Shown here one piece after another: positions 3,001 through 52,803 of a stretch of DNA of 64,000 nt (positions are counted from its first letter, which is position 1; every line of letters starts with the position of its first letter). The DNA is from Eubacteriales bacterium (GTDB taxonomy: Bacteria; Bacillota; Clostridia; Oscillospirales; QAKW01), in the NCBI GenBank assembly GCA_045636365.1, contig JAZTXG010000012.1, positions 6,559 through 70,558 on the forward strand, in the 5' to 3' direction. Below the pieces are notes generated by a model that saw nothing but the letters and a program-made list of their open reading frames with translations, was not told the origin of the DNA and searched no databases. The translations under genes and the position numbers were made by a program.

Positions 3001-4399
3001 TCGCTGTTTTTTCTGCGCTGTCAAAATTGGAAACGAACTCGCCGTTGGCATCTGCAATACCGTCGGGAACAAAGGAGAAGGAAAGGTTGGCATCGCCTTC
3101 TTCCTTCACCTTGAAGGTCAGGGTCAGCGCGGAGAACTCCGGCTCCATATCGACTGCGTCGACATTAATCCAGGTCACACCCAGAACGCCGTCGATGCTA
3201 TCTTCAATCACCGCTTCGGTGCCGGAGATGGTATCTTTAAAGTCGATCGGCTCGACCTTTTGCAAGTCTAATTTATCTTTATCGTAGGATCCCTTGATGG
3301 TCATGGTCGACCAGGCATCTGCATAGTCCTTGACATTGACGATGACGGTAATTTCGCCGCCGACTGTCGCGGTAGAAGGAGCAACCACTTCCAGCCCCAC
3401 AAGGGTGGTGGACTCGCTGATGACGATCTCTTTTTCTACAGGCTCTTTGGAAAAACCGGTGGTAATTTGATCCGTTTCGTTTTCGCCGAAGATGCCGTCC
3501 TCTATGAAGGAGAAGGAGAGGTTGGCATCGCCCAGCGCTTTGACATTAAAGGTCAGAGTTAAGGCTTTGAATTCTGCATCTACGTCATCGACAATATTCT
3601 CATTGACCCAGACCGCCGAGATGGTTCCGTTTTCGACCTTAAAGATGGAGTCTTCCATGATTTCGCTGTTCTTAAACGTACCCTTGACGGACCGTTCTTC
3701 GTCCAGCTCCAATACATCCTTGTTGTAAGAACCGCGGATGGAGAGGGTCGACCAATTCTTGGCATAATCCTTGACCCAGACTTCGACGGTAATTTCATCG
3801 CCGACCACCGCAGTAGACGGAACAACCACGTCCAGATAAGTGGGAGTGGCCGTATCGATCGTGATGGTTTCGGTCGCCGGCTCTACACTGTATTTCGCTG
3901 TATCCAGCGGAGCAGAACCGCCTTCGGCCGCGACCAACATTTCGCTTTCCACAAAGTTGAAAGAGATCTCCGCCTCGCCCAACGCAGCATCCGCCTTGAC
4001 GGTCAGAGGAACAACCATTAAGGTCGCACCCTCTTCCGGAGCCACATCCGAAGTGGCAACCCAACCCGCAAGGATCTTGCCGCCCGAAATATCTGCGTCC
4101 TTGACCGTCAGCTCGGTATCGCCGACGTTAAAATCATATGTCTCCGGTTCGCCATCGGGCGCGAAGAGGTCGGTGCTGTATGTACCTGCAACCGCCATCC
4201 CGCTGAGAGCGACCGTATTATGAATCGTGACAACAGCGTTGACCGCATCCCCGGGCGCGACAGAAGTCAGCGGATTGCCTTCGCCATCCACCAATTCCAC
4301 CTTCAGTTCCATCGGGTCAGAAAGCGCCGAGGAAAAGACGGACGCCATAGAAAGCAGCATAACGATTGTCACAATTGTTGCTCCTATACGTTTGAACAT
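1..4399 (-). CDS. Secreted scaffoldin-like protein with a signal peptide and about ten tandem cohesin-like modules. The 3-prime end is cut by the window edge, so it is at least 1466 aa.
   Basis: Absent from the supplied ORF track because it runs off the window. The reverse complement of 4380-4415 reads GGAGGAtctctATGTTCAAACGT. Hand translation gives MFKRIGATIVTIVMLLSMASVFSSA (signal peptide). This is followed by repeated units of about 150 aa such as VVVPSTAVVGDEITVEVWVKDYAKNWSTLSIRGSYNKDVLEL...LTLTFNVKALGDANLSFSF. I checked the frame as open at 4399-2900, 2460-2390 and 190-119. The plus-strand ORFs here (for example 539..3271) look like antisense shadows. Confidence 0.8.
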   Translation of the reverse strand, partial: MFKRIGATIVTIVMLLSMASVFSSALSDPMELKVELVDGEGNPLTSVAPGDAVNAVVTIHNTVALSGMAVAGTYSTDLFAPDGEPETYDFNVGDTELTVKDADISGGKILAGWVATSDVAPEEGATLMVVPLTVKADAALGEAEISFNFVESEMLVAAEGGSAPLDTAKYSVEPATETITIDTATPTYLDVVVPSTAVVGDEITVEVWVKDYAKNWSTLSIRGSYNKDVLELDEERSVKGTFKNSEIMEDSIFKVENGTISAVWVNENIVDDVDAEFKALTLTFNVKALGDANLSFSFIEDGIFGENETDQITTGFSKEPVEKEIVISESTTLVGLEVVAPSTATVGGEITVIVNVKDYADAWSTMTIKGSYDKDKLDLQKVEPIDFKDTISGTEAVIEDSIDGVLGVTWINVDAVDMEPEFSALTLTFKVKEEGDANLSFSFVPDGIADANGEFVSNFDSAEKTATIAIAPSVQGTMLNVDVVEDSAKLGETITVKVDVVDYKDNWAVMTIMGTYDAKKFELIEEESKFAAFSDGGIAGEPVIADENGKIAVNWLNDDTVVMADDTFTAMELTFKVLSGENTTEKFEFSFIPDGVLDENGDKVPTETYAADAKVSDTVELLYNDVTTSLEVKVDEDSAYVGKTVTVRVNVKDYANLWSAMTIQGTYDPAKLAVKTITPKNFQDEVIEPEIKNENGEIKVCWAHADAIVTENPNFEALVIVFDVLAEGEASFNFSFVPDGILDANGEYAPESWYDATEVSDTVILEIDNSKAHLGATVSKDRVKVGEQITYTVNVSEYQDNWLGMSIFANYDQTKLKFIEATSSVDGFAYFEADETKPGTIQAAWMNDEAVALGRNFEAMTLVFEVLDEGDPNVSFAFPENGIIVEDPATDGGMYAPEGSYSEAPVSAPVVLFAPTFLEIVGESKAQEGEEYTVELKLKDYSDLWSSFSAELSYDASVFTIEEVVPKAFGGITPTVDTSVDGKISLVFPAGAANIDAEKDNTLLSITFKTNGFKDDVQFDAALTEVKTFDGNANVDVDPYEYVADAEALIVDAKKIRFPHLTMVLEKGNAMDEGDDSVLHLYLNEYSSEWCTVPVVLEFDKERIRIKESDIVCNPLGGEDAQVLLRSGDGKIVFTWISLENIQDDREQILLASIPFKAYQDGEAKFGAGFVTDSVKTPDSNGGFTVVDTQTYAPKAEDQIITIANQYENMDPMFLSIGTADAAIKNRKEALTLTVNNLNNRVQALSVKLYYDKSEVTIDQEDIDEWQSDRDDVTGVVFLNEDEGYVHFILVSTDYISTETALTLMNLYYSPKVEGEISFYAEIDQAIAFDEEPMVSVWDYEERSETVVVNVKAQPHLIATADKTDAKIGDTVTVTVSVKDYLNAWSGMTINGSYNKNLLKLESITLTDAFGANKNQTVNEEDGTFTAAWSNAANIAANSEFDAIVLVFKVLDGGIAEFDFAFSEIL

Positions 4400-4488
4400 A
4401 GAGATCCTCCTTCAAATACGCACTTATAAAATAACCAAAAAAGGGTATAAATACCCCTAACGGTACGTATCCATTATTAGTTATTAAT

Positions 4489-4552
4489 ATTATAACAGAG
4501 CCGTTGTCAAATTGACATTACCTTATGTGTCTTTTTTAACACACTTTGCGTA
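4489..4552 (-). promoter_or_regulatory. Putative promoter of the scaffoldin-like gene: extended -10 (TGtTATAAT), a weak -35-position hexamer GTCAAT, and a conserved 36-nt upstream element (copy A).
   Basis: On the minus strand, TATAAT is at 4494-4489, preceded by TGt. A 16-nt spacer follows, then a hexamer at 4516-4511. The element at 4517-4552 (plus strand ATTACCTTATGTGTCTTTTTTAACACACTTTGCGTA) recurs with the same spacing at 11405-11440 and 52646-52681. Confidence 0.45.
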
Positions 4553-4620
4553 ATTTTAAAATTTATTTTGCCGCGCATAAATCGCCCCGCTTTGCCCCTT
4601 TCGCCCCCCATTTTGCAGCT

Positions 4621-4766
4621 ATATCATCACCGCAAGGTGTATATCATCACGCGCCAGCGTGTATGAAATCAACCGAAGGTTGAATGTAACCACCGTAGGT
4701 GTATGTAATCACCGCAAGGTGTATGTAACCACCGTAGGTGTATGCCATTTGCCCTGCACGGGCAAA
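4621..4766. repeat. Tandem array of seven mini-hairpins of about 20 nt each (array A).
   Basis: The units are atcaCACCgcaaGGTGtat, atcaCACGCgccaGCGTGtat, aaaTCAACCgaaGGTTGAat, gtaacCACCgtaGGTGtat, gtaatCACCgcaaGGTGtat, gtaacCACCgtaGGTGtat and TTTGCCCtgcacGGGCAAA. The AT-rich flanks are conserved. The stems vary but remain complementary. Confidence 0.7.
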
Positions 4767-4799
4767 AAAAGTGCGTCAGGAGTTCCTGACGCACTTTTT
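4766..4799 (-). terminator. Rho-independent (bidirectional-looking) terminator downstream of the 4801-5640 gene.
   Basis: AAAAAGTGCGTCAGGagttCCTGACGCACTTTTT: a perfect 10-bp GC-rich stem flanked by an A-run and a T-run, immediately after the TAA stop at 4801. Confidence 0.75.
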
Positions 4800-4800
4800 A

Positions 4801-5640
4801 TTATTCTTCTTTGGATTTTTTGCGCAGCAGCAATGCGATGGCAAAGGCGCTGGCGCTGGCAACCATCAAGGAGATCCAGAGGATCAGGTCAAAATGGTCG
4901 CCGGTATCGGCGTTATCGGAATCGGGCTTGGTTTCGGGCTTTTGCTCCGGCTTGGGTTCCGGCTCCGGCTCTGTCTCGCCCTCTCCGCCGGGCTGGCCCG
5001 GTTGCTCGGGTTCCGGTTCGGGATCGGGGGTGGGCTCGGGATCGGGGGTGGGGTCGGGATCAGGCTCGGGTCCGGGGGCAGGCTCTCCCTGCTTTTTTGC
5101 CAAAGCAAAATAGCATTTGCTGCCGCCCGCCTTAAAGATCAGTTCTCCGTCTTTGATTTCGGAGGGAATCAAGGATTTTTGACTATCGGTAGTCAGGCGG
5201 TAGACCTCTAAATCCTCGGAGGAGACCTTGATGCGAATCTCGTCCCCTTCCTCTAATTCGATGCGCTGACCGGTGGTCTTATCGCGATAATAGACCTCAA
5301 AGGGCATGGCATCTTGGGTATCCAAGCCCTCGATGCACTCTTTAAACCAATCCAATGCTTCTTTATGATCGGGTTCAAAAAACCGCACCACCAGCTCCAG
5401 CTCCCCATTGGGCTCTGCGGGAGTGACAGCTAAAGCGCCCTCTTCTACCTCAATCTTATACAAATCGTCTTGCAGAGGGGCAGTATGCTGATTGGGTTCT
5501 TCCGCAGGAACATAGGTACCCTGCACTTGGATGGGAACCTCGCCCGGCAGTTGGGTAATGGTCGTCGAATTATCCGCTTGGGCGACGATGCCCAAAGCAA
5601 GCAGCATACATATTAAAATTGCGCCGATCCTTCGCTTCAT
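4801..5640 (-). CDS. Secreted protein with a Pro/Glu/Asp-rich linker and a C-terminal tail resembling a cell-wall sorting signal.
   Basis: ORF track 4801..5646. GGAGG abuts the first ATG, so the start is more likely the MKRR ATG at 5640. Features: signal peptide [22 protein letters not shown]; linker [28 protein letters not shown]...[11 protein letters not shown]; tail NADTGD, a hydrophobic stretch [21 protein letters not shown], then RKKSKEE. Confidence 0.8.
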
Positions 5641-5670
5641 GCTCATCCTCCAACTAAATTATTGTCGCTA

Positions 5671-17116: not shown

Positions 17117-17205
17117 GCCGGTGTGGCGGAACTGGCAGACGCCCGGGACTTAAAATCCCGTGGGTAGCGATACCCGTACCGGTTCGATCCCGGTCACCGG
17201 CACCA
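17117..17205 (+). tRNA. tRNA-Leu (anticodon UAA), class II with a long variable arm and an encoded CCA.
   Basis: Acceptor GCCGGTG/CACCGGC. Anticodon stem CGGGA/TCCCG with loop CTTAAAA (anticodon TAA). Variable arm TGGGTAGCGATACCCGTA. T-arm CCGGTTCGATCCCGG. The 3-prime end is ACCA. Confidence 0.9.
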
Positions 17206-17238: not shown

Positions 17239-17244
17239 GTGTTT

Positions 17245-17409
17245 GTGTCTGCCAAGACACAACATCGTTTGACCGCTCGCGGTCAACATCATTTCGTGCA
17301 CCGCACGAACACCGTTTCTATACACAAAACGAGGTTGCCTAACGGCAAACAGTGTTGCGCCCTGCGCAAACGATGTGGGCTTTGCCCAACGATGTTGCGC
17401 TTCGCGCAA
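17245..17409. repeat. Tandem array of eight mini-hairpins (array B) between the tRNA-Leu terminator and gpsA.
   Basis: The units are GTGTCTgccaAGACAC, TTGACCGCtcGCGGTCAA, TTCGTGcaccgCACGAA, CGTTTctatacacaAAACG, GTTGCCtaacGGCAAC, TTGCGCcctGCGCAA, TGGGCtttGCCCA and TTGCGCttcGCGCAA. Flanks of the form (a/c)gatGTTG...CAAAcga recur, and the inner stems covary. Confidence 0.7.
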
Positions 17410-42854: not shown

Positions 42855-43050
42855 GGCGTATTTTTATACGCCTTCGGGTGCCCTATCGGCGCGGTTTGAA
42901 ACTTTCAAACAATTTTTATGCGCCCTTAAATGAAACAACAAAATTAAAAGACCGATCAAATCGGATGCAGATTTTGTTTTCTCTTACCGAAGGCGTATGT
43001 CGATACGTCGAGGGAAGAAAAACGGAAGCTGCGCCGATTTCATCGGTCTT
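42855..43050. repeat. Loose array of mini-hairpins (array D) in the spoVT / M23-peptidase intergenic region.
   Basis: The units are GGCGTATttttATACGCC, GTTTGAAAcTTTCAAAC, AAGACCGATcaaATCGG, CGTATgtcgATACG and CCGATttcATCGGTCTT. The third and fifth are inverted copies of each other. Confidence 0.6.
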
Positions 43051-52748: not shown

Positions 52749-52803
52749 CACGCTTCGCGTGATGACATACAACCTTCGGTTGATTCCATACCGCGCCGAG
52801 CGC
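52749..52803. repeat. Short mini-hairpin array (array C) of the same family as array A.
   Basis: The units are atACACGCttcGCGTGat, atACAACCttcGGTTGat and a weaker GCGCcgaGCGC. In reverse complement the first two match array A units 2 and 3 apart from the loops. Confidence 0.55.

Follow-up and report, generated by a model that had tools for sequence, protein, structure and literature searches.

Array A, a tandem run of mini-hairpins at positions 4620-4766 of the window (the 64,000-nucleotide stretch of DNA analysed here), is on its sequence a linker variant (T1/T1', GTATGTAATC / GTATATCATC) of the Gut-1 architectural class rather than a member of that family by Rfam threshold. We hold this family assignment with high confidence. 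As to what the array does, our confidence is evenly balanced over an account in which it is the orphan solo arm of a Gut-1-class repeat whose single-stranded fold would present its linkers, most likely to a cognate S23p protein, and in which it is not a dedicated regulator of the neighbouring scaffoldin gene. New here, at the level of sequence comparison, are the genome-level co-occurrence of the arrays with PF05635 genes, the test of linkers against protein clades on a tree, the test for the strand that folds and the finding that array A is an orphan.

The array consists of six perfect GC-rich mini-hairpins and a larger seventh, set on a constant 8-nt linker (TATGTAAT/TATATCAT). The six hairpin-linker units, of class T1/T1', occupy 4620-4748 of the plus strand, with hairpins at 4628-4639 (CACC-gcaa-GGTG), 4648-4661 (CACGC-gcca-GCGTG), 4670-4682 (CAACC-gaa-GGTTG), 4691-4701 (CACC-gta-GGTG), 4710-4721 (CACC-gcaa-GGTG) and 4730-4740 (CACC-gta-GGTG); the linkers are TATATCAT (twice), TATGAAAT, AATGTAAC, TATGTAAT, TATGTAAC and TATGCCAT. 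In order, the locus reads TATATCAT-CACCgcaaGGTG-TATATCAT-CACGCgccaGCGTG-TATGAAAT-CAACCgaaGGTTG-AATGTAAC-CACCgtaGGTG, continuing as TATGTAAT-CACCgcaaGGTG-TATGTAAC-CACCgtaGGTG-TATGCCAT-TTTGCCCtgcacGGGCAAA and then passing into a terminator at 4766-4799. The seventh hairpin (TTTGCCC-tgcac-GGGCAAA, 4748-4766) abuts this terminator, in the place taken by the 'head' hairpin of complete arrays. On the plus strand the six loops are of the cGNAg/cGNNAg type (GCAA, GCCA, GAA, GTA, GCAA and GTA). All seven stems are perfect, which confirms the seven tandem mini-hairpins described at 4621-4766 in the initial annotation. Tandem Repeats Finder gave periods of 20 and 39 nt, the latter in 2.9 copies, and the 39-nt period indicates that a two-unit segment was duplicated in place. 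The 211-nt region containing the array has folding z-scores of -6.0 and -6.5 for its two strands.

The flanks of array A are as first described, with the terminator of the 4801 gene on one side and the scaffoldin promoter on the other. The upstream gene (4801-5646, minus strand), which encodes a surface protein with an acidic repetitive stalk, is ended by a bidirectional intrinsic terminator at 4766-4799 (A-tract, 15-bp stem, T-tract) that precedes array A and would also halt a plus-strand transcript of it. About 100 nt downstream of the end of the array is the predicted scaffoldin promoter (4489-4518, minus strand; ATGTCA-18-TATAAT with TG), and the scaffoldin gene itself starts at 4399 on the minus strand.

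Runs of this kind exceed what shuffled sequence provides. The genome (1.5 Mb) contains 25 runs in which three or more perfect GC-rich hairpins follow one another at spacings of 4-11 nt, compared with 4-6 in Markov-shuffled genomes, an enrichment for which the initial annotation had proposed a genome-wide search; the sole run of eight such hairpins, the longest in the genome, is the array A locus. The pattern GTATGTAATC-N8-16-GTATG has matches in 17 of the 41 relatives; across the order, 26 of 301 genomes match, from 19 of 152 genera and at least 15 families. The reversed pattern, used as a control, had no matches in the 41 relatives and a handful of scattered singles in the 301 genomes. In nearly all cases the fills between GTATGTAATC and GTATG are palindromic. 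Moreover, 52 inter-linker segments form perfect hairpins anchored at their ends, where letter shuffling leaves about 1 and an exchange of 3' halves 7.3. The T1-family stems covary, as had been proposed for array A: pairs 2-6 use all four Watson-Crick types, while the outer pair is always C-G and, being invariant, is part of the constant portion. Across 65 distinct hairpin words nothing is constant except this outer C-G pair and the linker, and perfect stems make up more than 80% of the total.

The dimensions of the repeat set it apart from CRISPR arrays. CRISPR repeats are 21-48 nt long and are separated by unique spacers of 26-72 nt, with which a constant part of 8-10 nt and a self-complementary variable part of 11-19 nt are incompatible; the dismissal of a CRISPR in the initial annotation is thus upheld. 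Nor are the units simple terminators, as was also argued there, since units 1-6 carry no T-tract and the element at 4766-4799 alone qualifies. Two of the possibilities then raised have gained ground. The suggestion of a REP-like element fits the behaviour of a dispersed family with about 15 loci in this genome, and a protein-binding array is a serious candidate for the role of array A. The likeness to the REP/BIME elements of E. coli and Pseudomonas extends to an extragenic position behind transcription units, clusters of mixed orientation, short conserved connectors and many dispersed copies. However, it is the palindrome that is conserved in REPs, with a GTAG/CGTC head, whereas here the linker is conserved and the stems vary. 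A RAYT-driven REP was rejected: the Y1/RAYT transposase of the IS200 type that had been suggested as a partner gave no match in a PF01797 search of this genome (98% complete), control genomes being positive. No reverse transcriptase gene was found in this genome, and a DGR or retroelement origin was rejected for it on that ground. BOX elements of Streptococcus pneumoniae (boxA-boxB(n)-boxC) are also modular and intergenic, with fixed ends, variable internal units, predicted folding and positions near promoters or terminators, but their modules are 45-59 nt long and conserved in sequence, and they have neither the constant-linker/variable-stem rule nor a known partner protein.

The closest described counterpart is Gut-1 (RF01706), which was found in human-gut metagenomes and in no sequenced organism and was considered probably a non-coding RNA (Weinberg et al. 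2010, Genome Biol 11:R31, PMC2864571). That paper is silent on tRNA adjacency, composite architecture and a protein partner (PMC2864571), and our literature search found no later work on Gut-1. At gathering thresholds, the Rfam search of the window returned only a tRNA, array A falling below the cut-off. Once the thresholds are relaxed, array A gives a minus-strand match to RF01706 of 22.5 bits (E = 0.027; gathering cut-off 50), in an alignment that spans three hairpins and puts the linker in place of GUGAAAU. The best match in this genome, at a T2 array, reaches 30.1 bits. Canonical Gut-1 lies above the cut-off in 21 of the 41 relatives, which are gut, rumen or caecum MAGs of Clostridia, with up to 44 copies per genome; six of them (G003, G008, G026, G027, G031 and G036) have 20-44 copies each at 50-90 bits. 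The motif was absent from sequenced organisms in the original paper and is abundant here, which points to this order of uncultured gut Clostridia as a natural host. Copies above the cut-off are present within the genus itself and are likewise arranged as two inverted blocks. At one locus (L009) a canonical Gut-1 array of two inverted blocks is flanked by two T1 arrays.

Array A shares with Gut-1 the tandem small hairpins, the covarying stems, the short constant A/T-rich linker and the occurrence in gut bacteria. On the strand modelled by RF01706 its linkers read AUUACAUA, GUUACAUA, AUGAUAUA and, once, AUUUCAUA, and its loops UUGC, UGGC, UUC and UAC. It differs from Gut-1 in that a linker of 8-10 nt, (G)AUUACAUA(C) / AUGAUAUA, stands instead of GUGAAAU, that UUCG-like loops are lacking and that the polarity of the loops relative to the linker is reversed.

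The arrays of this genome fall into two linker classes. Class T1/T1' (TATGTAAT/TATATCAT) comprises array A, a three-unit array at 52749-52803 of the window, C24:29860-29920, C38:318-545 and a degenerate copy at C13:216100-216160. Class T2, with linkers AATGATG/CATCAT and also ACGATG/CATCGT, comprises array B (17243-17409 of the window) and nine more loci on C8, C11, C17, C20, C25, C27 (two), C33 and C35. Array B, which lies upstream of gpsA, begins 37 nt past the tRNA-Leu gene (17117-17205) and the terminator of that gene; it is built of three CATCGT/CATCAT units followed by four ACAGTG/ACGATG units in inverted orientation. The array at 52749-52803 has its GNA-loop sense on the minus strand and lies between the PEPCK terminator and the promoter of a dockerin-protein gene. 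The initial annotation had named three related arrays; that at 52749-52803 proved to be of the same class as array A and that at 17245-17409 to be an array of the other class (CATCAT/ACGATG), whereas the region 42855-43050 has no shared linker or hairpin run and looks like ordinary terminators between convergent genes.

Complete copies are composites (C38 in this genome; L002-L012, L125 and L126 elsewhere), in which a tRNA or 5S terminator is followed by a head hairpin, a block of 3-5 units, a degenerate centre, an inverted block of 3-5 units, a tail hairpin and the next promoter. The head hairpin is conserved, as CCAATCC-gaa-GGATTGG in T1 and TTTGCC-tttc-GGCAAA in T2, and composites with an inverted block are found at C38:318-545, L004, L005 and L125. 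Array A is a single block without an inverted partner and is oriented as the promoter-proximal (gene-proximal) arm, while the arrays at 52749-52803 and on C24 are terminator-proximal arms. Divergent promoters were sought by eye in the centres of the arrays and nothing convincing was seen. In a rough regex count the blocks held 3-5 linkers with no sharp peak at 5, and the idea of five linkers per block for a pentameric protein is therefore unsupported.

A tRNA or tmRNA gene, of which the genome has 47, precedes eight of the 15 arrays at a distance of 23-60 nt, the array being always on its 3' side. One further array is behind 5S rRNA and one behind a tRNA-like 3' end, and the remainder follow the terminators of protein genes such as those for PEPCK, thioredoxin and a surface protein. 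The tRNA-like end (G000:C24:29700-29830), 350 nt past tRNA-Asn, finishes in GGTTCGAGTCCAACAGGGGGAGCCA, which corresponds to a T-arm, acceptor and CCA; ARAGORN makes no call there, and a terminator and then the T1 array follow. Several tRNA terminators (C11, C17, C35, L004-L006 and L010) have constant flanks around a variable stem, AAAAAATAAAG-stem-loop-stem-CTTTATTTTTT, and look bidirectional, given their A-tract and T-tract.

This strong enrichment downstream of tRNA, tmRNA and 5S genes and of highly expressed protein genes (PEPCK, thioredoxin, a surface protein) speaks for an element that acts on DNA topology or as an insulator where heavily transcribed units end, comparable to the gyrase site of BIME-2 or the IHF-binding BIME-1 in E. 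coli. The array lengths, 60-230 bp, would fall within the range of a gyrase footprint. We nevertheless regard such an element as highly improbable, since self-complementary fills and strand-asymmetric loops would have no rationale in a double-stranded site, and the clade-specific pairing with S23p, described below, would be left unaccounted for.

PF05635 (23S_rRNA_IVP/S23p) is a family of pentameric four-helix bundles related to the retroelement protein Avd. This genome has exactly one PF05635 gene (C27:289-645; match to PDB 2rld, E = 3e-29). Its product belongs to the T2 clade of S23p proteins, and the -35 box of the gene directly adjoins the end of a composite T2 array. Among the 41 relatives, RF01706 matches are present in 27 of 27 PF05635-positive genomes and in 3 of 14 negative ones (Fisher p = 1e-7), and with one genome taken from each of 16 other families the figures are 7 of 7 and 2 of 9 (p = 0.003); as the genomes are kin, both p-values overstate the evidence. 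Array number and PF05635 copy number are strongly correlated (Spearman rho = 0.88; 0.65 in positive genomes alone). Among 68 distinct S23p ORFs retrieved, some 45 are preceded by an array at no more than 350 nt, usually in a wholly co-directional layout of tRNA, terminator, composite array, promoter and S23p. At several loci the array is upstream of the S23p promoter and not obviously within that mRNA.

Moreover, the linker class of an array corresponds to the clade of the adjacent protein. The classes seen were TATGTAAT, TATATCAT, CATCAT, GTGAAAT, GTGATAT, CATGAATTG, GCGATAT, CGTGAAGT, GGTAAAT and GCTAAAT. Mapped onto a tree of 63 proteins, the 11 linker labels can be explained by 15 changes, the minimum being 10 and the mean after shuffling 42.3; none of 200 shuffles gave so low a figure. 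The T1 proteins form one clade (SH-aLRT 98) that is sister to T1' inside a clade with support 100. Upstream of the genes for all ten T1-clade proteins are arrays of the TATGTAAT class, the T1' linker being TATATCAT, and the T1/T1' clade carries the motif IFQIRKSSSSVFAN in place of the NQLxRSxTSIGAN of other S23p clades. Two S23p clades are without arrays. Several linker classes, each beside its own paralogue, coexist within a single genome (e.g. G008), so the linker match follows the gene and not the genome. The match could arise from linkage by descent, gene and array travelling as one cassette, rather than from recognition. We consider a partnership between PF05635 proteins and the arrays to be the somewhat more probable case. 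Neither the arrays nor such a pairing were described in the literature that we searched on tandem hairpin repeats in Clostridia and on S23p function.

Two known systems bear comparison with this pairing. A small gene flanked by its own repeat class is the logic that tied REPs to RAYTs, but the associated protein here is a four-helix bundle with no catalytic activity known. In Coxiella and Leptospira, S23p is encoded by ORFs within intervening sequences of 23S rRNA (PMC4990558). These sequences have in common with the present loci the family PF05635 and the ties to stable-RNA units and to stem-forming inverted repeats. In contrast, the genes found here lie outside rRNA, behind tRNA genes, with ladders of mini-hairpins instead of one long stem, and most of the arrays, array A included, contain no gene.

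The hairpins are asymmetric between strands. When the linker sets the reading direction, GN(N)A loops outnumber TN(N)C loops by 38 to 6 in T1/T1', while the T2, GTGAAAT and GTGATAT classes have GN(N)A in 2 cases and TN(N)C in 61; relative to the linker, the loop polarity of T1/T1' is thus inverted with respect to all other classes. The closing pair is C-G in 49 of 52 hairpins. On the strand carrying GNA loops, single stem defects are G.T in 19 cases and A.C in 4 (binomial p = 0.0026). The loop asymmetry and the excess of G.T together indicate that the hairpins are kept foldable on one strand, with cGNAg/cGNNAg loops. These comparisons place the predicted folding strand opposite to the one modelled in Rfam; for array A the folding strand is the plus strand. 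Both genes flanking array A are on the minus strand, and its folding strand is antisense to each of them. With G.T wobbles and GN(N)A loops lying opposite to the RF01706 model in all linker classes, the orientation of that model may need review.

The loop types lean towards a fold in DNA rather than in RNA. Loops of the forms cGNAg and cGNNAg are classic, very stable DNA mini-hairpin loops, and C-G-closed triloops are said, from work by Hirao/Yoshizawa and Nakano 2002, to be typical of stable DNA mini-hairpins. Many GNNA tetraloops in the arrays, such as GCCA, GATA, GTTA and GTCA, are not GNRA. These loops count against the arrays being a structured RNA, as the filing of Gut-1 among Rfam sRNAs implies, or a cis-acting read-through module that blocks exonucleases or insulates adjacent transcription units. 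In favour of an RNA are the covarying stems, the loops of stable types and the placement between terminators and promoters, some arrays having a terminator on the Rfam strand (C8). At L125 the last hairpin runs into the ribosome-binding site of S23p, so that the array must be transcribed there, and the plus strand of array A leads directly into a terminator. However, no promoter was predicted beside array A on either strand, the wobbles favour the strand opposite to the Rfam model, and the two inverted blocks of most complete arrays mean that one transcript would have only half of its units in the folding sense. On balance we judge an RNA of either kind to be improbable.

The arrays have been shown to turn over fast between species. 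In two species of the genus, the arrays that follow 5S (C38 and L002) have the same architecture and differ in every stem; the head hairpin has passed from CCAATCC to CCAACCC with a compensating change. Downstream of PEPCK no synteny is shared among 80 relatives, where a single array with an unrelated linker was found. L116 was rejected as an orthologue of array B, its flanks not being syntenic. At L116 (G022:C5) an S23p gene has an upstream array with CATCAT/ACGATG linkers and, 0.8 kb past the gene, a second array (2560-2698) with GTGAAGT linkers, which puts two linker classes within one neighbourhood. At L126 (G028:C3:233770-234200) a tandem duplication directly upstream of an S23p gene takes in an entire T1 composite of about 210 bp, with a terminator-like hairpin.

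Such turnover is what a selfish or neutral modular DNA repeat would show, in the manner of BOX, REP/BIME or MITE elements, spreading by slippage, unequal crossing-over and occasional copying to post-terminator sites with S23p as cargo. Under this explanation, which we think unlikely overall, the perfect stems would come from template-switch correction in quasi-palindromes. Units are tandemly duplicated in array A and L006, as is the composite of L126, and some hairpin words recur across loci and genomes. C38 and L002 hold similar positions with no stem in common, array A is missing from the orthologous site in relatives, the two inverted blocks recall transposon ends, and arrays persist in genomes with no detected cognate gene. 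Set against these points are the negative searches for a transposase, whether Y1/RAYT or reverse transcriptase, and a co-occurrence with PF05635 that includes many arrays far from the gene. Moreover, the strand asymmetry of loops and G.T pairs, together with perfect stems at above 80%, points to selection on a single-stranded fold.

We return to docking of a protein on the folded strand, for which a mechanism can tentatively be sketched by analogy. The repeat unit is a constant linker of 8-10 nt plus a mini-hairpin whose stem is free to vary as long as it pairs, and arrays grow by tandem duplication of units and are dispersed over post-terminator sites. In single-stranded form, be it RNA from read-through or antisense transcription or briefly unwound DNA, the hairpins would act as rigid spacers that set the constant linkers at regular intervals, and the linkers would be docking sites for the cognate ring protein, with a logic like that of TRAP and CsrA on repeat RNAs or ParR on iterons. 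The working analogy is with spaced constant motifs that serve a multimeric protein, often upstream of its own gene (the 11 (G/U)AG triplets of TRAP, CsrA with CsrB/RsmZ, ParR with the parC iterons). There is no sequence or structural kinship to any of these, and docking is here a proposal by analogy to which we give slightly less than an even chance.

In its general form the proposal is that Gut-1-type arrays of all linker variants may be sequence-specific docking arrays for PF05635 proteins on single-stranded nucleic acid at the ends of stable-RNA units, array A having lost its cognate protein; we lean a little against rather than towards a statement of this breadth. If true, it would describe a partnership like that of REPs and RAYTs built on a non-enzymatic four-helix bundle, and would give one account of an orphan Rfam motif, of the '23S rRNA intervening sequence protein' family and of Avd relatives outside DGRs. 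To our knowledge, Gut-1 has been an orphan motif since 2010 and PF05635 has gone without an assigned function for about three decades. As array content tracks PF05635 content in one bacterial order, with a linker class per clade, a position behind tRNA genes and one folding strand, both orphans become the subject of a binding experiment with synthetic oligonucleotides and a 120-residue protein.

Lastly, we considered array A at its own locus, where a cognate PF05635 gene is lacking beside it. Searches by tblastn with representatives of every S23p clade found no T1-type copy or remnant in the 98%-complete, fragmented assembly, only the T2 gene being matched; the five T1 loci, array A among them, are thus orphans in this assembly. 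In the scaffoldin orthologues of G168 (59% identity), G319 and G318, conservation covers the promoter module and reaches about 150 nt beyond the promoter on its upstream side, and none of the three has array A upstream. Positional conservation, the lack of which the initial annotation had named as counting against a functional array, is not seen for array A at these orthologues. This absence argues against a dedicated role at the scaffoldin promoter; a conserved cis-regulatory role was rejected on the same ground, and the array is probably irrelevant to regulation at the cohesin-scaffoldin locus. Taken together, the missing T1-clade S23p gene and the missing array at scaffoldin orthologues make array A most likely an orphan and dispensable copy. 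The perfect stems that it retains without a cognate gene count against this explanation, fitting a relic poorly unless it is young or otherwise retained. For annotation, it would be wrong to record arrays of this kind as CRISPRs, as terminators or as promoter operators of an adjacent gene.

In two relatives a different repeat occupies the place of array A upstream of scaffoldin (L200 in G168 and L201 in G319). It is also present at G000:C20:61200-61400 and consists of palindromes, CACAATTCATTTGTG / CCAAATCATTTGG, with a constant core in 6-8 repeats; the appearance of these palindrome arrays suggests operator or iteron sites. The 5' leader of the scaffoldin gene contains a terminator-like hairpin (4441-4458 of the window, minus strand; AGGGGTATTTATACCCTT then TTTTGG) that is conserved in the orthologues and may be an attenuator of this gene.
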